This document shows positions 459 through 12,109 of a stretch of 12,109 bases of DNA, in pieces. Under the pieces are notes generated by a model, which saw only the letters and a list, made by a program, of their open reading frames with translations, did not search any database and had not been told where the DNA came from. Position 1 is the first letter of the stretch, and every line of letters starts with the position of its first letter. Source of the stretch: a virus (taxonomy: Duplodnaviria; Heunggongvirae; Uroviricota; Caudoviricetes); IMG/VR virus record IMGVR_UViG_3300019790_000026, positions 1 to 12,109 of that record. One strand, written 5' to 3'. The translations under genes were made by a program, and so were the position numbers.

Positions 459-546
459 TCAGACAGGCGTTCTTCCTGCTCAGACAGAGATTTTTCGGTT
501 CGCGCGCTCAGGTTTTGCTGCTCAGTGGCGACCAGCTCCACGGCTC

Positions 547-2472
547 ATGACAGTGAAAGCAAAGCGTTTTCGCATCGGGGTGGAAGGTGCCACCACCGAC
601 GGACGCGAAATCCAGCGTGAATGGCTGGAACAGATGGCAGCCAGCTACAACCCGGCGGTGTATACCGCGCTGATTAACCTTGAGCACATCAAGTCTTATC
701 TGCCGGACAGCACCTTTAACCGCTACGGCAAGGTGACGGCGCTGTTTGCTGAGGAAATCACGGAAGGTCCGCTGGCAGGCAAGATGGCGCTGTATGCCGA
801 CGTTGAGCCAACGGAGTCCCTGGTGGAACTGGTGAAAAAACGCGACAAGTGGGGTGACTATGGGCCGCTGGATCAGATGCAGCTCACCACCGCCGCACGC
901 TACTGCCAGCTCATTATGAAGGAGCACAAAGAAGGGAAAGATTTCAAAGAGATTGACCTGCTGGCGCGCCAGTCGGAGCGCCATGCGCGGATCGGCAAGT
1001 TTAACAATGGCGGCAACGAAGCCGACTTAAACCCTAACGTCGCCAACCGCAACAAAGGCCCGCGTCGTCAGCCGGAAAAGAACGTTTTCACCGATGAACA
1101 GATTGAGAAGCTGGAAGAAATCTTCCATTCCTCCATGTTCAACTACCAGCGCCACTGGTGGGAAGCCGGAAAAACCAACCGCATCCGCAACCTGCTGAAG
1201 TCACGCCAGATCGGCGCGACCTTCTATTTTGCCCGTGAAGCCCTGATTGACGCCCTGCTAACCGGGCGTAACCAGATTTTCCTTTCCGCCAGCAAGGCAC
1301 AGGCCCACGTCTTTAAGCAGTACATCATCGACTTCGCCAAAGAAGTGGAGGTGGAGCTGAAAGGCGATCCGATAGTGCTTCCTAACGGGGCCACGCTGTA
1401 CTTCCTCGGCACCAATGCCCGCACGGCCCAGAGTTACCACGGCAACCTGTATCTGGATGAATATTTCTGGATACCGAAATTCCAAGAGCTGCGCAAAGTG
1501 GCTTCCGGTATGGCTATTCACAAAAAATGGCGACAAACCTATTTTTCCACGCCATCCAGCCTGACACACAGTGCTTATCCGTTCTGGTCCGGTGCGCTGT
1601 TCAACCGTGGGCGCAACAAAGCCGACAAGGTGGACATCGACCTGTCCCACAGCAATCTGGCCCCCGGCCTGCTGTGCACAGACGGGCAATACCGCCAGAT
1701 AGTCACCGTGGAAGATGCGGTGCGCGGCGGCTGTAACCTGTTCGACCTCGACCAGCTACGCATGGAGTACAGCCCGGACGAATACCAGAACCTGCTGATG
1801 TGCGAGTTCGTGGACGATCTCGCGTCCGTGTTCCCGCTCAGCGAGCTGCAAGCGTGCATGGTGGACAGTTGGGAAATCTGGACCGACTTTCATGCACTGG
1901 CCCTGCGCCCGTTTGGCTGGCGCGAAGTGTGGATCGGTTATGACCCGGCAAAAGGTACGCAGAACGGCGACAGTGCCGGATGCGTGGTGGTGGCACCGCC
2001 AGCCGTGCCGGGTGGTAAGTTCCGCATTCTTGAGCGTCACCAGTGGCGCGGGATGGACTTCCGCGCCCAGGCTGACGCCATCAAAAAACTGACCGAGCAG
2101 TACAACGTGACCTACATCGGCATCGACTCGACAGGTGTCGGCCACGGGGTTTACGAGAACGTGAAAGCGTTTTTTCCAGCCGTCCGGGAGTTTGTCTACA
2201 ACCCCAACGTTAAAAACGCCCTGGTACTCAAGGCCTACGACATTATCAGTCACCGTCGTCTGGAGTTTGACGCCGGACACACCGACATAGCGCAGTCATT
2301 TATGGCAATCCGTCGCGCCACCACCGCCAGCGGCAACCGCCCAACCTATGAAGCCAGCCGCAGCGAAGAAGCCAGCCATGCCGATCTGGCCTGGGCAACA
2401 ATGCACGCACTGTTTAACGAACCGCTGCAGGGCGAGTCCGCCAATACCAGCAATATTGTGGAGATTTTTTGA
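547..2472 (+). CDS. Terminase ATPase/large subunit (P2 gpP-like) with a foreign N-terminus resembling capsid scaffold/protease gpO (apparent fusion)
   Basis: From about codon 98 onward (KRDKWGD..., DFKEIDLL, SRQIGATFYFAREAL, NQIFLSASKAQAHVFK, LYFLGTNARTAQSYHGN) the ORF matches my recollection of the GpP terminase family. Residues 1-97 (KRFRIGVEGATTDGREI...INLEH...FNRYGKV) match the GPO scaffold N-terminal motifs. ATG at 547 is preferred over the tracked TTG at 391. The stop overlaps the portal start. Confidence 0.7.
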   Translation: MTVKAKRFRIGVEGATTDGREIQREWLEQMAASYNPAVYTALINLEHIKSYLPDSTFNRYGKVTALFAEEITEGPLAGKMALYADVEPTESLVELVKKRDKWGDYGPLDQMQLTTAARYCQLIMKEHKEGKDFKEIDLLARQSERHARIGKFNNGGNEADLNPNVANRNKGPRRQPEKNVFTDEQIEKLEEIFHSSMFNYQRHWWEAGKTNRIRNLLKSRQIGATFYFAREALIDALLTGRNQIFLSASKAQAHVFKQYIIDFAKEVEVELKGDPIVLPNGATLYFLGTNARTAQSYHGNLYLDEYFWIPKFQELRKVASGMAIHKKWRQTYFSTPSSLTHSAYPFWSGALFNRGRNKADKVDIDLSHSNLAPGLLCTDGQYRQIVTVEDAVRGGCNLFDLDQLRMEYSPDEYQNLLMCEFVDDLASVFPLSELQACMVDSWEIWTDFHALALRPFGWREVWIGYDPAKGTQNGDSAGCVVVAPPAVPGGKFRILERHQWRGMDFRAQADAIKKLTEQYNVTYIGIDSTGVGHGVYENVKAFFPAVREFVYNPNVKNALVLKAYDIISHRRLEFDAGHTDIAQSFMAIRRATTASGNRPTYEASRSEEASHADLAWATMHALFNEPLQGESANTSNIVEIF

Positions 2473-3497
2473 TGGGAAAGAGTAAGAAAAACCGCGCTGC
2501 GGCGACGAACCAGATCCAGCATAAAAACCAAACTTCAGCCGAAGCATTCAGCTTCGGTGATCCCGTTCCTGTTCTGGACCGCCGCGAATTACTGGACTAT
2601 GTGGAATGCGTAAAGATGGACCGCTGGTATGAGCCACCCGTAAGTTTTGACGGACTGGCGCGAACATTCCGCGCCGCCGTACACCACAGTTCACCGATTG
2701 CAGTAAAGTGCAACATTCTGACCAGCACCTACATCCCTCACCCGCTGCTCAGCCAGCAGGCGTTTTCACGTTTTGTGCAGGACTATCTGGTTTTTGGTAA
2801 CGCCTACCTGGAGAAACGCACGAACCGATTCGGTGAAGTTATCGCCCTTGAGCCTGCGCTGGCAAAATACACCCGACGCGGATTAGACCTAGATACCTAC
2901 TGGTTTGTGCAATACGGCATGACCACGCAGCCGTATCAGTTCACGAAAGGCAGCATTTTTCATCTGATGGAACCGGACATCAACCAGGAGATCTACGGCC
3001 TGCCCGGCTATCTTTCTGCCATCCCATCCGCCCTGCTCAACGAGTCCGCCACGCTGTTCCGCCGAAAGTATTACATTAACGGTAGTCATGCAGGCTTCAT
3101 CATGTACATGACCGATGCCGCGCAGAACCAGGAAGATGTGAACAACCTCCGCAATGCGATGAAAAGTGCCAAAGGCCCTGGCAACTTCCGCAACCTGTTT
3201 ATGTACTCGCCTAATGGTAAAAAAGACGGACTTCAGATTATCCCGTTGTCAGAAGTCACAGCGAAGGATGAGTTTCTGAATATCAAGAACGTGAGCCGTG
3301 ATGACATGATGGCGGCACACCGCGTGCCGCCGCAAATGATGGGAATTATGCCTAATAATGTCGGGGGGTTTGGGGATGTGGAGAAGGCTAGCAAGGTATT
3401 CGTAAGAAACGAATTGATGCCCCTGCAGAAACGATTGCAGGAACTAAATAACTGGTTGGACGAAGAAGTGCTCAATTTTTCAACCTATGAGCTTTAG
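2472..3497 (+). CDS. Portal protein (P2 gpQ-like)
   Basis: 341-aa ORF directly after the terminase gene with TGATG stop/start overlap. Size and position match P2 Q, and the sequence resembles the gpQ portal family. ATG at 2472 is preferred over the tracked TTG at 2469. Confidence 0.85.
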   Translation: MGKSKKNRAAATNQIQHKNQTSAEAFSFGDPVPVLDRRELLDYVECVKMDRWYEPPVSFDGLARTFRAAVHHSSPIAVKCNILTSTYIPHPLLSQQAFSRFVQDYLVFGNAYLEKRTNRFGEVIALEPALAKYTRRGLDLDTYWFVQYGMTTQPYQFTKGSIFHLMEPDINQEIYGLPGYLSAIPSALLNESATLFRRKYYINGSHAGFIMYMTDAAQNQEDVNNLRNAMKSAKGPGNFRNLFMYSPNGKKDGLQIIPLSEVTAKDEFLNIKNVSRDDMMAAHRVPPQMMGIMPNNVGGFGDVEKASKVFVRNELMPLQKRLQELNNWLDEEVLNFSTYEL

Positions 3498-3502
3498 TTT
3501 TA

Positions 3503-3533
3503 AAACGAAGACCATTAGGTCTTCGCTTTATTT
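3503..3533. terminator. Bidirectional intrinsic terminator shared by the convergent portal and retron RT genes
   Basis: Hairpin CGAAGACC (3506-3513), loop ATTA, GGTCTTCG (3518-3525), flanked by an A-run on the left and CTTTATTT on the right, so it reads as stem plus U-tract on both strands. The RT stop codon lies in the loop. Confidence 0.5.
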
Positions 3534-4477
3534 AAAGGGTTCTTTCCATATTTTTTTTCTAATTTGCTAATATAAGTTATTAATCTCCTATGGCTTTTTG
3601 AATCCACACTTAAAATAAATGACAACCATCCCCTAACGTGTTCTATCTCAGAAGACTTACCGCAAAATATATGATGTATCTTTGCTCTAATTTCTTTATA
3701 TTTTTCTCTACCTATCCCAACTTTCTCTTGTGAAATAACTAAACCTGTAACTTTCCTCTGACTACGAGGCCCACTAATACAAGTTTTTTTTGAGTTAATA
3801 ACCAATCCTTCACTTGGGATTATAGAAAATAAAAAATCACGTGCTTTAACAACCTTTTTCATAGACTGTGCAGATAAGGTGAGATCATCGGCATATCTCG
3901 TATATATCAAGCCCCGACTACCTGCATAACCCTGAATACGATAATCAAGTTTAGAACATATTAGATTAGCTAATTTAGGTGATGATGGAGCACCTTGTGG
4001 TAGCAGATTTTTATAACAACATATTTTTGTCAAAACTGAAGATATTAGTCGATTATAACCAAGAGAATGGAACACTCCAAAAACTTTGTTAGCAGTTAAA
4101 CTTGGGAAAAAATCCTCCAAATCAATATTCAGTATAAAGTTTGCCCCAATATGCGGGGTAGCATTATTCAAAATAGATTGGTGCTTTTCAAATCCAATAG
4201 AAAAAGGAGATGACGACAGTTTATCTAAAATGTTACGTAGAACCCATCCTTGTAAGGCTTTAAGTTCTCGAGAAGGTTGGTAAATGGTTCTCATTCTCTT
4301 CTCTGGGCCTTTCTTTTCTACAGTGTAGATCCTATAGCGAAAATCAGCTGTATAGATTAACAACCGAAGTGTTTCAACAGATATGCGAGTCGCCTTAGAC
4401 ATGTCATGCAAATTGTTCATGACAGGTAGGCCGAGATTTCTCAATCTAAAAGTGTTCAAATATTCAGCGGATTTCAT
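3515..4477 (-). CDS. ret: Retron reverse transcriptase, Ec86 / Retron-Eco1 type
   Basis: 320-aa ORF with reverse-transcriptase motifs (NIDLEDFFPS, LPQGAPSSPKLANL, YADDLTLS) and the retron-typical VTG motif (RKVTGLVIS). The translation matches my memory of the published Ec86 RT, and the gene sits immediately downstream of the msr-msd. Confidence 0.93.
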   Translation of the reverse strand: MKSAEYLNTFRLRNLGLPVMNNLHDMSKATRISVETLRLLIYTADFRYRIYTVEKKGPEKRMRTIYQPSRELKALQGWVLRNILDKLSSSPFSIGFEKHQSILNNATPHIGANFILNIDLEDFFPSLTANKVFGVFHSLGYNRLISSVLTKICCYKNLLPQGAPSSPKLANLICSKLDYRIQGYAGSRGLIYTRYADDLTLSAQSMKKVVKARDFLFSIIPSEGLVINSKKTCISGPRSQRKVTGLVISQEKVGIGREKYKEIRAKIHHIFCGKSSEIEHVRGWLSFILSVDSKSHRRLITYISKLEKKYGKNPLNKAKT

Positions 4478-4484
4478 GAAAGTT

Positions 4485-4496
4485 GCGCACCCTTAC
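4485..4496 (-). repeat. Retron a2 inverted repeat (pairs with a1 at 4641-4652)
   Basis: 12-nt exact reverse complement of 4641-4652. Confidence 0.85.
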
Positions 4497-4639
4497 GTCA
4501 GAAAAAACGGGTTTCCTGGTTGGCTCGGAGAGCATCAGGCGATGCTCTCCGTTCCAACAAGGAAAACAGACAGTAACTCAGATTCAATGCAGGATGCCGA
4601 AACAACATCCAGAGGTTGACCTTAATGATAAACCTCTCG

Positions 4640-5563
4640 CTAAGGGTGCGCATACGGAATCTTATCATAGTTAAATGTTGATTTTCTACGGTTTTCAAAA
4701 TTCATAATCTCAAGCCGCAATCGGTCAAGTGTCTTTCTATCAAAGACGCTCCTAACATAGCTAGCCCCCAAAGCAGTGACCTGATAACCATCAGTCATTT
4801 GAAGTATTTTTCGTTCATTTATTAGACGAGAAACAACGGATCTAACAATAATTTTAGATAAAACATCATCTTGCTTTATCGCTTTAAAAGCTAGTTCACA
4901 CAGTGTGCGGTAGTTGACACTATCCAGTAAATAGATACAAGGCAATAGAAACCGCTCTGCGTATAATATATTTCCAATATCTTTTGATACTTTATTTTCT
5001 TTCCTAACCTTCTTAATAGATGCCATTAATTTTTTATATAATCGTAATTTTCTGGCAACATCAATAGATGAATCACACATTTCTTTTAGTTCATTTGAAC
5101 TACAACGCAAAACAGATTTTGAATTAAACTTACGCAACAGGCGAACAGGACCATAGTTAATAAAGCTACGTTTTGATTTAAATTTTGCATCTTGAATGCA
5201 AATCAACTTTCTCCTTAAGTTTTCATTATTAGAGAACGCACCAAGCTCTGTGAAAGACCCCGGACTTTCAGGAAATAAAATTATTACATCGACAGCTTCA
5301 GCCAGAATATTTTCTAAACTTAAAAGGCTATGCTGCCCTTGACCAGCCAAAAGATCATCAAATAGATCTTCTGGATAAAATATATCAACATCACTGAACT
5401 TTGCTAAAAATTGTGATAATTGATGACGCCAAGATTGATGATTAGCAACGTCACCACCACATAGAAAAATGGTTATTTTAATATTAGCTCCTCGATAGAA
5501 GCCTTTCTTTGTGAGATGTCCTATAAGCTGTTGTTGCTGCTCATCGGTAAATTTTTTATTCAT
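4640..5563 (-). CDS. Retron effector: nucleoside 2-deoxyribosyltransferase-like (NDT) domain with a C-terminal putative DNA-binding region
   Basis: 307-aa ORF immediately upstream of msr-msd-ret on the same strand, with RBS GGGGAGA. The N-terminal region (IFLCGGD..., ILFPESPGSFTELGAF) fits the NDT/flavodoxin-like fold with the conserved Glu. Its TAG stop overlaps the a1 repeat. Confidence 0.85.
   Translation of the reverse strand: MNKKFTDEQQQQLIGHLTKKGFYRGANIKITIFLCGGDVANHQSWRHQLSQFLAKFSDVDIFYPEDLFDDLLAGQGQHSLLSLENILAEAVDVIILFPESPGSFTELGAFSNNENLRRKLICIQDAKFKSKRSFINYGPVRLLRKFNSKSVLRCSSNELKEMCDSSIDVARKLRLYKKLMASIKKVRKENKVSKDIGNILYAERFLLPCIYLLDSVNYRTLCELAFKAIKQDDVLSKIIVRSVVSRLINERKILQMTDGYQVTALGASYVRSVFDRKTLDRLRLEIMNFENRRKSTFNYDKIPYAHP
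4641..4652 (-). repeat. Retron a1 inverted repeat; the presumed priming G follows at 4640
   Basis: 12-nt exact reverse complement of 4485-4496, at the 5-prime end of msr. Confidence 0.85.
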
Positions 5564-5704
5564 AATCTCCCCGCTTTTTTTTCTACTTTATACATCAAGT
5601 TATGAATAGATCCAATCTCCATACCACATGGCGCGCGCTCGTATCCCCGCCACGCCTGCCCGCTTTATGCAGTGGTTTTCATGCACATGCATAACATGAG
5701 CAAA

Positions 5705-5730
5705 AGCCCGCCAGTTCTGGCGGATCTGAG
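5705..5730 (-). terminator. Putative intrinsic terminator (minus-strand sense)
   Basis: Perfect hairpin CCGCCAG-N3-CTGGCGG (5708-5726) followed on the minus strand by GCTTTTGC. Confidence 0.3.
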
Positions 5731-6035
5731 CAAAGACGATCCTCAATCGATCATGCGATTTCATGCAGCATAGTCATGCACTGTCAAGGAAGTGAAAATC
5801 CGTATCTGAATGGCCACTTGAAAAACGGATCATACGGGTTTACAAAGATGAATGTTCGCTGTGAACGGGAAGCGGAAGTTAACTTTCAGATAACATAATC
5901 CATATGCACGAGAACCTCTAAAATAGAATGGGACACCTAAGCGGGGTACTTACAACGATTCTTTCCATATTCACAGTTAACACTCTGTTTGGCGTATTTT
6001 TATTCAAATAGCAAACACCAATAAAAGGAGTTTCC

Positions 6036-6371
6036 ATGAACAATATTCCCCCTATACCACAGTTAGGAATTTATGTCTCAAAAATCGATCCCACCCTACG
6101 TATCACTGTAACCGATGTTGATATTGTTGATGGTGAGGATGATTCTCCTGATGATGAATTGTTTTATTTAGTCCACTGGATCGAGGGGGAAGATGAAAGT
6201 GATATGACAGCAATGGGATTTGAGCTAGACCCAGTAGAGTGGCAGGCTTTCGTTGAATCTGAGCAATTAGTGTTTGAGCGTGATCCGTACATGGATTCAA
6301 TCCCCGAAAATTCAAACTTGGCAAAGATTCGGGATTTTCTCATGAAGACTAAACAGAATGATCATTCGTAA
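6036..6371 (+). CDS. Hypothetical small, strongly acidic protein (111 aa)
   Basis: Strong RBS AAAAGGAG 6 nt upstream of ATG. Very Asp/Glu-rich (DVDIVDGEDDSPDDE, EGEDESD). AT-rich relative to the phage core. Divergent from the retron effector. Confidence 0.7.
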   Translation: MNNIPPIPQLGIYVSKIDPTLRITVTDVDIVDGEDDSPDDELFYLVHWIEGEDESDMTAMGFELDPVEWQAFVESEQLVFERDPYMDSIPENSNLAKIRDFLMKTKQNDHS

Positions 6372-6563
6372 GTGTAAGCATCCATCAGGAAAATGGTTTT
6401 GTAAGTGAATCATCAACTTTTAGAGAGTCTCAGACACTCCCACTTCTGCTTCTGACACAAAGCGGACGATCACTTATCAAAATAACCGCCCACCTTACGC
6501 CTTATTTCACTCATTGCCCAAACTAGCCCCCATCAGAATGAATCCTCCTGGGGGCAACATTTC

Positions 6564-6797
6564 TTAATGCAGCCAGCTGTCGTCCTCCCACACCTTCTGC
6601 ATAATTTTCATCACTTGTTTTCTTTCTTCATCCAGTTGCAGTCCGGTTAGTTCCACACCGTTAGAGCTACCTTTGCGAATGCGAATTACCGTTTTGGGAT
6701 ACAGGGGGCGCAGATTGCGGTAAAGCTCGGATTCAAGGGCGTCCAGGGTAGACTGGCTAATCTTCTGCTCTTTATCGATCATTATTTCAATGCGCAT
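6564..6797 (-). CDS. DinI-family protein (DNA-damage-inducible protein I-like)
   Basis: 77-aa product MRIEIMIDKEQKISQSTLDALESELYRNLRPLYP...VWEDDSWLH has the DinI length and pattern (MRIEV..., C-terminal acidic W motif). RBS GGTGA upstream. ATG at 6797 is preferred over the tracked 101-aa extension. Confidence 0.8.
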   Translation of the reverse strand: MRIEIMIDKEQKISQSTLDALESELYRNLRPLYPKTVIRIRKGSSNGVELTGLQLDEERKQVMKIMQKVWEDDSWLH

Positions 6798-6807
6798 AAA
6801 AGTCACC

Positions 6808-6996
6808 TCAGCTGATGACATCCATTGAGCGGTTGTATTCGTGGCTTCTGATTTTTGCCATGAGTTCATCAGTCAATTCAGAAACCCACTGCAGAGCCAG
6901 CCCCTTCTCTTCATCACTACACTCACTAGCCGCTACAAGCTTAAGAAAAAAATCAATGCGCTGGAGCTTCAAAGACTCCAAAAAATAGTCCTGCAT
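6808..6996 (-). CDS. Hypothetical 62-aa protein, first gene of the SOS-boxed operon (possibly the N-terminal part of a Tum-like antirepressor)
   Basis: ORF with strong RBS AGGAGG, directly downstream of the LexA-box promoter and 10 nt upstream of the DinI-like gene. Confidence 0.5.
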   Translation of the reverse strand: MQDYFLESLKLQRIDFFLKLVAASECSDEEKGLALQWVSELTDELMAKIRSHEYNRSMDVIS

Positions 6997-7036
6997 CTTT
7001 CCTCCTATGACACCAAAACAATACTGTATACATAAC

Positions 7037-7056
7037 CACTGTTTATATTTACAGTA
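7037..7056. promoter_or_regulatory. LexA (SOS) box overlapping a putative promoter for the orf62/DinI-like operon
   Basis: cACTGTttatatttACAGta is a perfect CTGT-N8-ACAG with AT-rich spacer. A second half-site (TACTGTATAC) lies at 7022-7031. A TTTACA / TATACT promoter-like pair is on the minus strand. Confidence 0.7.
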
Positions 7057-7148
7057 TATAATAATCTTACTGATGTAAAACGTTTTTTTACGTTCATCGG
7101 CCTGATATGCCTGGTATTATTAAGAGCACGAATTGTCAACCCGCGTAA

Positions 7149-8594
7149 TTAATACAGGTTCCGCCACTTATCATCTTCCTTCAGACGCTGGTTCCGATAG
7201 AAGATACGCAGGCCTGCTCCTGACGGAATACTGCCGCCGCGAAGGAGCAAATCGACTTCTTTCTCGCTGCCATCAAATCCCCTGGACTTCAGTTCATAGA
7301 CGAGCTGCTGTCGCTGATGGTCTGTAATTCGCTGTTTGTAGTCTTTACGCCGTTTCGGTTTCACCTGGCGTAACCTTGCAGCCAGTTCCCGGCGCTCTTT
7401 TTTGCTCATACTGTGCAGGTAATTGTGCAACTCCTTGTCATTCATACGGGTAATATCCGTTCTGGAGTCCCCATCAGCTGATTTGTCTTTCCCTTGTTGG
7501 TTCAAATTTTCAGCAAGGGGACAGTTATTGCCACGAGTCCAAGGGGCGCAAGCGCCCTGGTCGGCTGCCGCCTCCTGAACGTCAACGGCCTTACGAACCA
7601 TTTTCCACTTCACCGCATGAGTGCAGATCTTGCCCTCTGCAATGGGTGACCAGATGCCATAAATACGAATACCGTGATCGCCATATGCGGTCGGTTCTTC
7701 GTTGATTTCATAAGCAGTTCTGATGAGGTGATATTTGCGGGGAACCAGTACGCCGCCCTGCTTCATGATGTAGGTGGCAAAACAACCAGCATCAGCAGCA
7801 GCCAGGATTGCATCAAGACGCGGGTTATCCAGTACCGGCGCACCTGCTTTTTTGTCACCCTGTTGCCTTGCCGCCTGACCAGCCAGCAATCGCAGTTCAC
7901 GGTAAGCCTGACGCCCCGGAATGCCAAAGAAGCGGAATTGCTGAACACGATGCAGAGACGCCCAGGCATTAACGTATTCAGCGTTATCACGCAGGGATTT
8001 ACCCGTTTCCTTGCTGATCTCCCCAGCCAGACCACGCCCGTCAATGTTCTTACTGATGTATTTCGCGATATAGCTTGTTGGCGTACCTTTGCGCGGGTTT
8101 ATCAGCTCAGACTTAAAGCGTGGTCCCGTGTTATTGCCCAGCTCCTCGCGGTCTTCACGGATGGCAAACTTACGCAGTAATGCAGTGATGGCGCGGCGGT
8201 CTTTTTTACGCATGAAACACATGAGATGCCAGTGCACAGTACCGTCATGATGCGGCTCAGCTACCGCACCTGCAGCAACACGCCCGATCTCTGCGGTTGC
8301 ACTCATGACGTAATGTGGCAGTTTCTCTTTTGCCACCTCATTAATCGGTACGCATGGCAGGCAGTGAATCTGAGCCAGAAAACCATCTACCAGCGTTGAA
8401 TCTTCAGTCAGATCGGTAAGCAGCCAGATTTCTGGTGCGGTTAATAAATGAGGTTGCGCTGGGTTCAACTTGTTCCGCAGAATCTGCACATTCATGCCAG
8501 CACGTTCTGCCAGTTGCACCAGGTTGTGGCGCAATGCGAATGCACGACAGGCTTCATCAAAATGTGGATGTTTGGAAACTTGGTAATCAAACAT
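7149..8594 (-). CDS. In-frame fusion ORF: 186 CII-like N-terminus (~115 aa) joined to the C-terminal catalytic part of a gpA-type rolling-circle replication initiator
   Basis: N-terminus [24 protein letters not shown]...[26 protein letters not shown] matches my recollection of phage 186 CII. The downstream part carries the HUH-like HWHLM motif and the paired-tyrosine motif [12 protein letters not shown] typical of P2 gpA / phiX174 A proteins. ATG at 8594 with RBS AGAGG. Confidence 0.65.
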
Positions 8595-8626
8595 GGTCAA
8601 TGCCTCTGATGTATTTCAGAATCGAA

Positions 8627-8848
8627 CTAATTAAGGTTTAGATTGCATTCTGAAAGCGCATCAACGGTCATTGCTGCTATGTTGATCATCACTTTTTCGC
8701 GTTTTTTATCTTTGCGCAGTCGGTGACGGATAAGGCGTCCATCAGCCAACATGTCATTGATGGTATCGATGGATAGCCCTGTCAGCTCGCTATAGCGTTC
8801 AATAGTCACATGAGGGGTGGTAAGAGTGATTGAAATGTTAGGTCTCAT
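8627..8848 (-). CDS. Apl/Cox-like small HTH protein (first early-lytic gene: excisionase / transcription regulator)
   Basis: 73-aa ORF divergent from the CI gene and immediately upstream of the CII-like ORF, as apl is in phage 186. HTH-like segment [21 protein letters not shown]. Confidence 0.5.
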
Positions 8849-8967
8849 GATGCAACATTCCTCGTTTAATGATGATTAATCAGGACGAATACGGATCGTT
8901 TGTATTTTGTGAACACCATAAACATACGATCGCACAGTGAAATCGTCAAGATAAAAGTTCACTTGGA
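8849..8967. promoter_or_regulatory. Immunity switch region between apl-like and cI-like genes (lytic/lysogenic promoters and candidate operators)
   Basis: 119-bp divergent intergenic region containing related motifs ATACGGATCGTTTGTAT and ATACGATCGCAC. Its position matches the pR/pL switch of 186-type phages. Confidence 0.4.
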
Positions 8968-9543
8968 GTGACCATGAATTTGGAGAAAGGCGGACGAGGC
9001 GCTATAGAGCGCATGGTAGAAGCTTATGGATTCAAGACTCGACAGGCGTTGTGCGATCATTTAGGAATCTCTAAAAGTACACTCGCCACACGCTACATGC
9101 GTGACTCATTCCCAGCAGAATGGGTAATCCAGTGCGCCCTTGAAACAGGCACCTCGCTTAATTGGCTCACAACCGGGCATGGTTCAAAGCAAACTTCAGG
9201 TAATACAAATACTATGGAAGTTGCTAAATATGTATTATCTGATGGGGCCTTGTGTGAAGACGGTTTTTATATTTTCGATAGAGAATTTCTACCGTCGGCA
9301 TTCAAGAATCTTTTTGTAATCACAGATAATAATTCTGAATTTATTTGTGATAAGGAATTTGATGATATACGTGATGGTAAATGGGTAATAAGTATTGATG
9401 GCGAAATAACGATCCGTGACATTACTCGTTTACCCGGTGGAAGAATCTTCGTCGAGGGTGGAAATAGAGCCTTCGAGTGCAAGATAGAAGATGTTGAAAT
9501 AATTGGGAAAATTATAAGTTTAACAATTAAGTACGTTAGGTAA
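8968..9543 (+). CDS. cI: CI-type immunity repressor (phage 186 CI-like)
   Basis: 191 aa (186 CI is 192 aa). N-terminal HTH (TRQALCDHLGISKSTLATRYMRD) with a C-terminal oligomerisation-like domain. RBS GGAGTGA. Divergent from the apl-like gene and upstream of int. Confidence 0.8.
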   Translation: MTMNLEKGGRGAIERMVEAYGFKTRQALCDHLGISKSTLATRYMRDSFPAEWVIQCALETGTSLNWLTTGHGSKQTSGNTNTMEVAKYVLSDGALCEDGFYIFDREFLPSAFKNLFVITDNNSEFICDKEFDDIRDGKWVISIDGEITIRDITRLPGGRIFVEGGNRAFECKIEDVEIIGKIISLTIKYVR

Positions 9544-9558
9544 TACCGGGAGGAAACT

Positions 9559-9750
9559 ATGCTTGGTAAGGTATTTTTTGTGGTTTTATCATGCTCTTTG
9601 TTATTAAACCCACTAACTACCTATGCTAAAAATTATCCTTGTTCTGGGAAAAAGGGAGGTGTCTCTCACTGTACCTCCGATGGAAAGTTCGTTTGCAATG
9701 ATGGAACTATTAGTAAATCAAAAAAAATCTGTACTAAAAACTCGCGATAA
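9559..9750 (+). CDS. Small secreted Cys-rich protein (63 aa) inserted between cI and int
   Basis: RBS GGAGGAAACT-ATG. Predicted signal peptide [23 protein letters not shown], then a Lys-rich mature peptide of about 40 aa with 5 Cys. Confidence 0.55.
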
Positions 9751-9936
9751 ATTTTGCTTTTATATCTGCGCCTAATATAACAATGAGCCGCAGGCTAACC
9801 GCAAAAGTCACATACTCACATAGCAAAAAATAGCTAACTTCATTATGGCTTCAGTGAGATGTATGGTCGCAGGATTTCATACATTGACACTGGTTATACA
9901 TACAGTAAAAATGCTCTCTACTGGAGGGCATTTTTT

Positions 9937-10953
9937 ATGGCAGTACGAAAACTCACCACAGGAAAATGGCTTTGCGAATGTTACCCCGCCGGACGTAGTG
10001 GACGTCGTGTGCGTAAACAATTCGCCACCAAAGGCGAAGCTCTGGCTTTTGAGCGTCACACGATGGAAGAAACCGAAGCAAAGCCCTGGCTGGGCGAATC
10101 AGTGGATCGTCGGACATTGAAAGACGTGATTGAGCTATGGTTCAAACTACATGGTAAATCTCTGACAGCTGGGCAGCATGTCTATGACAAACTGCTGTTG
10201 ATGGTTGACGCTCTGGGCAATCCCCTTGCAACTGATCTAACCTCTAAAATGTTTGCCCACTATCGAGATAAACGCCTGACAGGTGAGATCTACTTCAGCG
10301 AGAAATGGAAGAAAGGAGCAAGCCCGGTCACCATTAACCTGGAGCAAAGCTATCTAAGTAGTGTTTTTAGCGAACTATCCCGCCTGGGCGAATGGTCGTA
10401 TCCGAACCCACTGGAGAACATGCGAAAATTCACCATCGCAGAAAAAGAGATGGCATGGCTTACCCATGAGCAGATTGTTGAACTGCTGGCTGATTGCAAA
10501 CGTCAGGACCCAATTCTGGCACTGGTAGTCAAGATATGCCTAAGCACAGGCGCACGCTGGCGAGAAGCAATAAATCTTACCCGCTCGCAAGTGACCAAAT
10601 ACCGAATTACCTTTGTAAGAACGAAGGGGAAGAAAAACAGAAGCATCCCTATCAGTAAAGAGCTTTACGAAGAGATCATGGCGCTTGATGGGTTCAATTT
10701 CTTTACAGACTGCTATTTTCAATTTTTATCCGTGATGGAAAAAACGTCTATCGTGCTCCCTCGCGGTCAACTGACACACGTTCTGCGCCATACGTTTGCG
10801 GCGCACTTCATGATGTCGGGTGGAAATATCCTTGCTTTGCAAAAAATCCTCGGACATCACGATATAAAAATGACTATGCGCTATGCCCATTTAGCACCCG
10901 ATCATCTTGAGACGGCTCTGAGATTCAACCCCCTCGCAACGCTAGAAGTGTGA
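9937..10953 (+). CDS. int: Tyrosine integrase (P2/186 Int family)
   Basis: 338 aa. Catalytic residues in context: ...STGARWREA..., ...HVLRHTFA..., ...MRYAHL.... RBS GGAGGG. ATG at 9937 is preferred over the tracked start at 9859. Confidence 0.9.
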   Translation: MAVRKLTTGKWLCECYPAGRSGRRVRKQFATKGEALAFERHTMEETEAKPWLGESVDRRTLKDVIELWFKLHGKSLTAGQHVYDKLLLMVDALGNPLATDLTSKMFAHYRDKRLTGEIYFSEKWKKGASPVTINLEQSYLSSVFSELSRLGEWSYPNPLENMRKFTIAEKEMAWLTHEQIVELLADCKRQDPILALVVKICLSTGARWREAINLTRSQVTKYRITFVRTKGKKNRSIPISKELYEEIMALDGFNFFTDCYFQFLSVMEKTSIVLPRGQLTHVLRHTFAAHFMMSGGNILALQKILGHHDIKMTMRYAHLAPDHLETALRFNPLATLEV

Positions 10954-11061
10954 TCTACTGGTGCAAAAATAACATCATCCCCCACTAGCTGAGTTAATTG
11001 CGTCAGAGTAAACTTTTATCAGTATATAAGTTCACTTTTATTCAATATATTAAGAGATTAC

Positions 11062-11394
11062 ATGGCTATCATTACCGTAAAAAAACATACTGTCAAAAAA
11101 GCATTATCGATGGGATTTGAAAAAGTACTTGACGATCGTGGTTATGATTCTGGGGCGTACTACGTTAAAGATGGCAAAAAGTGGATTTTTGATATTGTTG
11201 CGCTTAAGCAAAAACAAGGAGCAACCTCAGATGATGAGTTAAAAATCCTTGGGTATGATGTTGATACATATAATCTTGTAAAAAATGAATCTAATGAACT
11301 GGCTGAACTTTATCAAGATATTGCAGTTGAAGATGGTGAGCCAATGTATCTAGAGGGTGGCGTGTACTTATATCCTGATGGTTCTATCCGTTAG
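11062..11394 (+). CDS. Hypothetical protein (110 aa), AT-rich, just downstream of int
   Basis: ORF with AT-rich promoter-like upstream region. No family recognised. Composition contrasts with the GC-rich sequence that follows it. Confidence 0.5.
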   Translation: MAIITVKKHTVKKALSMGFEKVLDDRGYDSGAYYVKDGKKWIFDIVALKQKQGATSDDELKILGYDVDTYNLVKNESNELAELYQDIAVEDGEPMYLEGGVYLYPDGSIR

Positions 11395-11528
11395 CATGCA
11401 AATTGGCAGCACAACCGGGTTGTTCCAAATGGCGACAAAGTGGCGGCAGCGGTTGGCATTACCCCGTAATAACCACCACTGACCACCAACCCAACTTATT
11501 GTTTTTACTATAACTTATTGTTTTCATT

Positions 11529-11594
11529 AACCCGTTTACATAAATGGGTTTTTTGTTATCTAAAACTTATCTACTACCCTGCAACCCTCTCAAC
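11529..11594. repeat. Inverted repeat copy A (66 bp, perfect reverse complement of 12044-12109)
   Basis: Direct comparison: 11529-11594 equals the reverse complement of 12044-12109 at every position. Confidence 0.95.
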
Positions 11595-12074
11595 CATCCT
11601 CAAAATCTCCTCGCGCGATAGCGGCTTACGGTCGGTGACAAAATGCAGCGTCATCCCCTCAATAAACGCATCAAGCGCGCGGGCGGTTCCGGGTTCAAAC
11701 CATTGTTCGAGCGTTTGCTGACTGCGCTGCATCCAGTTTTGCATTACCGTTTTTAATAGCGGTTTTCGGCTAGCCAGCGCGTAGAGCTGGTACATCAGCT
11801 CCATGTTATCCGGCGTTGCAACCTGTGAGCTGTAGATCATATCGGTGATAGCCTGGCATGCGCCCGGAGCATCACTAACATCGCTAAAAAATGCCTGATA
11901 TTGCCGGGACATGATCTCAGTAAAACTGCTGAACGCCTCCAGTAACAACTCATCAATTCCTGAAAAATAGTAGGTCATCGATCCCAACGGTACCCCGGCA
12001 AGGGTAGCAATTTTGCGGTGCGTAACAGCATGTATTCCGTAAAGTTGAGAGGGTTGCAGGGTAGTAGATAAGTT
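11574..12074 (-). pseudogene. TetR-family transcriptional regulator, apparently 5-prime truncated by the inverted repeat
   Basis: The minus-strand frame is open from 12074 to the TAG at 11576..11574. It encodes a TetR-type HTH ([27 protein letters not shown]) and a ligand-binding-like C-terminal domain. There is no ATG upstream of the HTH (only a TTG at 11987, inside the HTH). The first codons and the last codons plus stop lie inside the two inverted-repeat copies. Confidence 0.65.
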
Positions 12075-12109
12075 TTAGATAACAAAAAACCCATTTATGT
12101 AAACGGGTT
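12044..12109. repeat. Inverted repeat copy B (66 bp, cut by the window edge, so it may be longer)
   Basis: Perfect reverse complement of 11529-11594. The window ends inside or at the end of the repeat. Confidence 0.95.

Follow-up and report, generated by a model that had tools for sequence, protein, structure and literature searches.

The right-hand end of the 12,109-nt stretch of DNA analysed here (the window) raises a question of origin. A perfect inverted repeat brackets a truncated TetR-family gene and runs into the last base. For this arrangement the first-pass annotation, made from the sequence alone, offered three causes: an inverted duplication at a rearrangement breakpoint, an invertible segment, and a palindromic chimeric contig end.

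The inverted repeat, its native arm and rcdA

The whole window corresponds to the chromosome of E. coli B/BL21(DE3) (NC_012971.2, about 871,406-884,041, reversed). Positions 1-544 and 834-12046 are 100% identical with this chromosome, and the sole departures of the window from it are three inversion-type joints, designated A, B and C. The window holds a defective P2-like prophage, a retron, and, on the minus strand, the chromosomal TetR-family gene rcdA (ybjK). The prophage genes are those for lysis, the GPO scaffold, terminase, portal, a truncated replication endonuclease, the CI repressor, and a tyrosine integrase, the last of which (9859-10953) lies about 600 nt from the repeat. The features discussed below are listed in Table 1.

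Table 1. Positions of the repeat arms, the joints and the associated features in the window (L002, reference locus)
Feature	Position	Strand	Basis or remark
Junction A, 6-nt microhomology CACGGC	539..544	.	L002 plus strand to 2044 joined to minus strand from 2661
Inverted GPO scaffold piece (P2-like)	545..833	.	L002 2655-2367 reversed, 100% identical
Chimeric in-frame ORF, GPO 1 to ~97 fused to terminase 44-588	547..2472	+	Results from both junctions, A and B
Junction B, 7-nt microhomology GAAAAAA	834..840	.	L002 minus strand to ~2360 joined to plus strand from 2924
Left arm, native copy	11529..11594	.	100% colinear with BL21(DE3)
Terminator-like hairpin, 9-pair stem, 4-nt loop, then T run	11529..11550	+	Prophage/chromosome boundary
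rcdA (ybjK), TetR-family regulator, native part, residues 23-178	11574..12046	-	BL21 annotation and translation
Right arm, non-native inverted copy of 11529-11594	12044..12109	.	No colinear match in the collections searched
Junction C, 3-nt microhomology GTT	12044..12046	.	Base-by-base comparison

The exact 66-bp inverted repeat described in the annotation is confirmed. The two 66-nt arms are 100% complementary, 449 nt lie between them, and the outer end of the right arm is the final base of the window, 12109. Inward of the arms the complementarity stops (CATCCTCAAA versus TTTACGGAAT). Considering that the runner-up inverted repeat within the window is merely 38 nt long at 74%, a perfect repeat of 66 nt is far beyond chance. 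A check for an inverted repeat at the left end of the window found none.

The left arm begins with 15 nt of the prophage end (11529-11543) and continues with the att core (about 11544-11563). A 10-nt spacer separates the core from 21 nt of the end of rcdA (11574-11594), i.e., the stop codon and the last six codons. In rcdA loci free of a prophage, the match with the window begins at 11544/11545 and extends rightwards only, and the attL annotation of the Klebsiella P2-like phage 4LV2017 maps to 11544-11563 and, in mirror image, to 12075-12094. The right arm includes 15-16 nt of prophage-specific sequence, and therefore it was templated from this same locus. The copy of the left-arm terminator-like hairpin occupies 12088-12109 and closes the window with its 22 bases. 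Position 12109 is exactly the outermost base of this 9-pair hairpin copy; the match may be a coincidence, or it may mark the stopping point of a polymerase, a read or an assembler.

At joint C the window was compared, base by base, with the native continuation and with the reverse complement of the left arm. After 12046, BL21 goes on into rcdA codons 22-1 and the ybjJ intergenic region, whereas the window is the reverse complement of 11594-11529. In other words, the window turns here onto the opposite strand, starting 449 nt behind, and the right arm stands in place of rcdA codons 22-1 and the rcdA-ybjJ intergenic region. The GTT at 12044-12046 fits both paths, and joint C is therefore assigned a 3-nt microhomology.

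The annotation had proposed a comparison with the intact orthologue as the means of telling which copy is ancestral, and the BL21 rcdA locus allows it to be made. Since the window is native up to 12046 and then departs from BL21, the left arm is the native copy, and 12047-12109 the added one. The breakpoint suspected at the inner edge of the right arm is indeed located there, for the native path ends at 12046 and codons 22-1 are replaced. Native 12047-12109 agrees with the reverse-complemented left arm at scattered positions only. Quasipalindrome-templated correction was considered as well, and it is ruled out because native 12047-12109 holds no pre-existing imperfect repeat.

Native RcdA, an E. 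coli TetR-family transcription factor, is 178 aa long (BL21 protein WP_001295289.1). The copy in the window has 100% identity with it over residues 23-178 and is without residues 1-22. In the minus-strand frame of rcdA, the stop codon is at 11574-11576, and the last six codons (VERVAG) are inside the left arm. The first RcdA residue present is L23, the codon of which (12042-12044) straddles the inner edge of the right arm. The opening of the stop-to-stop frame, which follows a TAA at 12075-12077, is within the right arm, but no start codon occurs there, and the ten residues encoded by the arm are antisense junk with no TetR residues. The statement that the ORF begins in one arm and ends in the other is thus correct as far as the opening of the frame and the position of the stop and the last six codons are concerned. 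It is slightly off in taking the first recognisable TetR residues to be encoded by the repeat, because these begin at the inner boundary of the arm.

The earliest in-frame start codons of rcdA in the window are TTG (L42) and ATG (M45). With residues 1-22 absent and no start before L42/M45, the N-terminal DNA-binding region is incomplete. In an intact RcdA of the TetR family, a full N-terminal region with a start codon of its own would precede the C-terminal domain, and for homologous truncated RcdA products the Pfam listing is limited to the C-terminal TetR_C_31 and TetR_C_6. As written in the window, rcdA is a null allele. That the gene is not an intact native one, as the annotation held, is evident from the absence of its start codon together with the first 22 residues.

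The 137-aa RcdA fragment is not in the public gene index. A 134-aa fragment has been recorded, but its contigs are unrelated and their rcdA lesions are different ones; in public assemblies, 145 blocks list this N-truncated product. In six loci (L003-L008), six different lesions fall within nt 73-131 of the rcdA CDS (locus ~9870-10005): delA97, +GC at nt 81, delG115, the nonsense changes G73T and C131A, and +G at nt 114. Two of the six, which lie in a G4 run, could be homopolymer errors, and the remaining ones look like independent loss-of-function alleles.

Two further joints and their distribution

Joints A and B sit about 11 kb upstream of joint C on the same contig. The jump is 617 nt at joint A and about 567 nt at joint B. 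Between the two joints about 290 nt of the GPO scaffold gene stand in inverted orientation, and the flanks that this piece has in the reference (L002 2045-2356 and 2662-2923; 312 and 262 nt, respectively) are lost from the window. The inverted 305-nt BLAST match has a 1-nt mismatch, which is only an over-extension of the alignment past joint B. The two joints together create an in-frame fusion of GPO to terminase. Seven starts were tried for this ORF, and none of the resulting GPO::terminase products is recorded in the public gene index. The presence of two further inversion joints on the same contig is the strongest clue to the cause of the repeat.

None of the three joints is found elsewhere in the collections searched. 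A 150-nt probe for joint C has a colinear cover of at least 80% in 0 of 5,426 complete E. coli genomes, 5,421 of which have the native arrangement at this position. The same probe has no colinear match among 72,556 plasmid records or 50,697 phage records. The exact patterns of joints B and C give 0 matches in viral, metagenome and GTDB contig collections, and joints A and B are missing from all the complete E. coli genomes. In particular, the 48 complete genomes of the B/C lineage that cover the window contain none of the three joints.

Origin of the joints

To obtain a null distribution of microhomology, 200,000 random inversion joints with jumps of 300-800 nt were simulated in this locus. 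Among them the probability of at least 3 nt is 0.055, that of at least 6 nt is 0.0016, and that of at least 7 nt is 0.0005. Compared with these values, the observed microhomologies (6 nt in A, 7 nt in B and 3 nt in C) indicate that the joints were primed by annealing of a 3' end to a short complement and then extended, i.e., by template switching, and not made by blunt ligation or by software.

These properties may be compared with published profiles of chimeras. After MDA of a single E. coli cell (Lasken & Stockwell 2007, PMC1855051), 85% of the chimeras are inverted. Most of the inverted chimeras (337/406) join segments less than 10 kb apart, with the number dropping with distance, and 93.5% of those less than 10 kb apart have at least 2 nt of complementarity (range 2-21). 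All three joints in the window likewise connect inverted segments of a single region, the BL21 locus. Their distances (617, ~567 and 449 nt) are below 10 kb and within the short range that is favoured, and the complementarity at the priming site (6, 7 and 3 nt) falls in the range of 2-21 nt. Palindromic joints occur in 40-50% of WGA long reads, some of which contain as many as 15 (PMC6218980). With the MDA chimeras and these Pacasus WGA reads, the joints share inverted segments of one locus 449-617 nt apart, complementarity of 3-7 nt, and the occurrence of several joints per molecule-sized stretch. The density is a point of difference, as three joints in 12 kb are somewhat above the rate of about one joint per 10-22 kb reported for MDA (PMC1855051).

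Two other kinds of chimera that arise before sequencing are also similar. Library-prep chimeras formed by single-strand annealing, after FFPE or enzymatic fragmentation, are reported to be inverted same-locus joints with microhomology (PMC8674242, PMC10908179). Long-read foldbacks (PMC12870357) are inverted same-locus microhomology joints as well, but they turn within 200 bp near the midpoint of the read, as against a 449-nt loop in the window and a joint placed 66 nt before the end.

Since the three joints are all inverted, within the same locus, 450-620 nt apart and provided with 3-7 nt of microhomology, an origin outside the cell is thought likely. The 66-nt repeat would then be a strand-switch (fold-back) chimera that arose in vitro and was fixed into the end of the contig, a reading to which we assign a probability of about 0.72, and most likely it is neither a natural feature of rcdA nor a genetic switch. 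The starting material for amplification or library preparation would be low-abundance DNA of E. coli BL21. This strain is a frequent contaminant of reagents and laboratories. In the proposed mechanism, strand synthesis would run rightwards through rcdA to window 12043-12046, where the 3' end would leave its template and pair again, through GTT, with the opposite strand at 11592-11594, about 450 nt back. Extension in the opposite direction would then copy the 3' end of rcdA, the att core and the prophage-end hairpin as their reverse complement. Two more switches of the same kind would have taken place near window 539-840. The likeliest setting would be whole-genome amplification by strand displacement of the phi29/MDA type, or single-strand annealing during library preparation; a rare error of replication is a further possible source of the fold-back. 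The contig may end 66 nt past the joint because the onward sequence would merely reverse-complement sequence already used, or because the read ended there. A consensus normally outvotes chimeric reads, and therefore the in vitro account needs either very low coverage or a contig that is essentially one molecule; it is proposed that the joints were kept in the consensus for one of these reasons.

Further considerations stand against an in vitro origin. At the MDA rates in the literature, ~0.5-1.2 joints would be expected in 12 kb, and there are three. Public assemblies appear to contain independent loss-of-function alleles of rcdA, so that a real disruption of the gene is not absurd. Furthermore, replication U-turns and microhomology-mediated template switching in vivo give the same joint anatomy (PMC4417113), in which the growing 3' end pairs again further upstream, with the other strand, at a short inverted microhomology.

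This last point leads to the proposal that the rearrangement took place in vivo, in a BL21-derived strain, where a U-turn or an MMBIR-like template switch would have produced an inverted duplication disrupting rcdA, and where the deletion-inversion-deletion in GPO/terminase would stem from the same event or from a second one. The inverted, nearby, microhomology-bearing joints are what such inversions would leave. The contig consensus shows the joints and no trace of the native path, the regions affected (a defective prophage and a non-essential regulator) are dispensable, and N-terminal lesions of rcdA have occurred independently in unrelated assemblies. Nevertheless, this origin is considered unlikely. 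It needs three rare events within 12 kb of one clone, none of which is seen in the 48 complete genomes of the B/C lineage that cover the window or in other genomes, and the break of the contig 66 nt past the joint fits a chimera and not a clonal rearrangement in unique sequence. The U-turns in PMC4417113, moreover, are defined as less than 50 bp apart, in contrast to the 449-617 nt here. The microhomologies of 3-7 nt are also shorter than those of the inversion joints verified in a Salmonella population, which have at least 12 bp, candidates with 7 and 9 bp having failed verification there (PMC3411829). Among the possible routes in vivo is the first joint of a tandem inversion duplication; this model calls for a second, opposite joint and three copies, whereas the window shows sequence to 12109 only. 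Tandem inversion duplications were reportedly described in Salmonella by Kugelberg et al. in 2010, as cited in PMC4417113. One form of a cellular origin, a genuine chromosomal inverted duplication made by multi-step replicative template switching that also scrambled GPO/terminase and left inverted att cores around rcdA, is given very little credence. If it were true, the inverted att cores would be a substrate that the adjacent P2-like integrase might invert.

Inversion by this integrase is at the centre of a different proposal, that 11595-12043 is a natural invertible segment, flipped by the P2-like tyrosine integrase to switch rcdA. Each arm does carry an att core of about 20 nt, in opposite orientations, and the integrase gene is close by. 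However, in about 5,420 E. coli genomes, among them intact lysogens of this phage type (L006), the native locus has one 66-nt copy, which runs straight into rcdA codons 1-22, and the invertible segment put forward in the annotation does not withstand this comparison. The joint at 12043/12044 is, in addition, about 30 nt from the copy of the att core at 12075-12094 and hence outside the region cut by a site-specific recombinase. In either orientation rcdA would be without codons 1-22 and a start codon, and joints A and B would be left unaccounted for. Such a switch is regarded as scarcely credible. A purely computational artefact is very improbable too, whether a repeat at which the assembler mis-joined or folded its graph, or a long read with an overlooked hairpin adapter. 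The repeat does reach exactly to the end of the contig and the window, and if this end was set by a de Bruijn graph, the 66-nt arm would correspond to k = 67. A graph mis-join, however, requires a shared (k-1)-mer of tens of nt, and just 3 nt (joint C) or 6-7 nt (joints A and B) are shared. A missed adapter or a read-through into the complement strand leaves no gap or an adapter, whereas here 449 nt of native single-copy sequence separate the arms. From the short overlaps and the 449-nt spacer it follows that the joint must exist in at least one sequenced molecule, and software explains only the stop of the contig. Thus, of the three causes originally offered, the inverted duplication at a breakpoint and the chimeric contig end are both viable, with the evidence favouring the chimera, and the invertible segment is dropped.

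The main value of these results is as a quality flag, in that the contig is a fragment of E. coli BL21, a strain common in laboratories and reagents, and carries no fewer than three chimeric joints. Biological meaning should not be read into the GPO-terminase fusion ORF, the shortened rcdA or the repeat at the end of the window, for instance by reporting a new fusion protein, a pseudogene, an inverted terminal repeat or a phase switch. Were the joints real, they would represent a modest case of microhomology-mediated complex rearrangement in a laboratory strain, with a null allele of rcdA, of limited general interest.

Other features of the prophage region

In a Logan contig (ERR14226240_6), the stretch 10585-20405 of locus L006, compared with window 7149-11394, contains a P2-like prophage that is apparently intact and occupies, as in the window, the att site next to rcdA. 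It shares with the window the integrase and a 110-aa gene. In the BL21 element the genes for the replication endonuclease and CII are truncated, and considering the intact prophage at the same att site, this element appears to be a degraded remnant.

On the prophage side of the att core, abutting the left arm, a direct repeat of AACTTATTGTTTT(T/C)A occurs twice, at 11493-11510 and 11512-11529. The two copies may be candidate arm-binding sites of the integrase.

Scans of the whole window with Rfam, at the gathering threshold, and for tRNAs gave no hits. The BL21 retron, annotated as 'retron St85 family', occupies window 3515-5563 on the minus strand, with the RT at ~3515-4477 and the effector at 4640-5563. 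Between these two genes there is an imperfect 25-nt inverted repeat (4512-4536/4541-4565), which is probably the msd stem of the retron.
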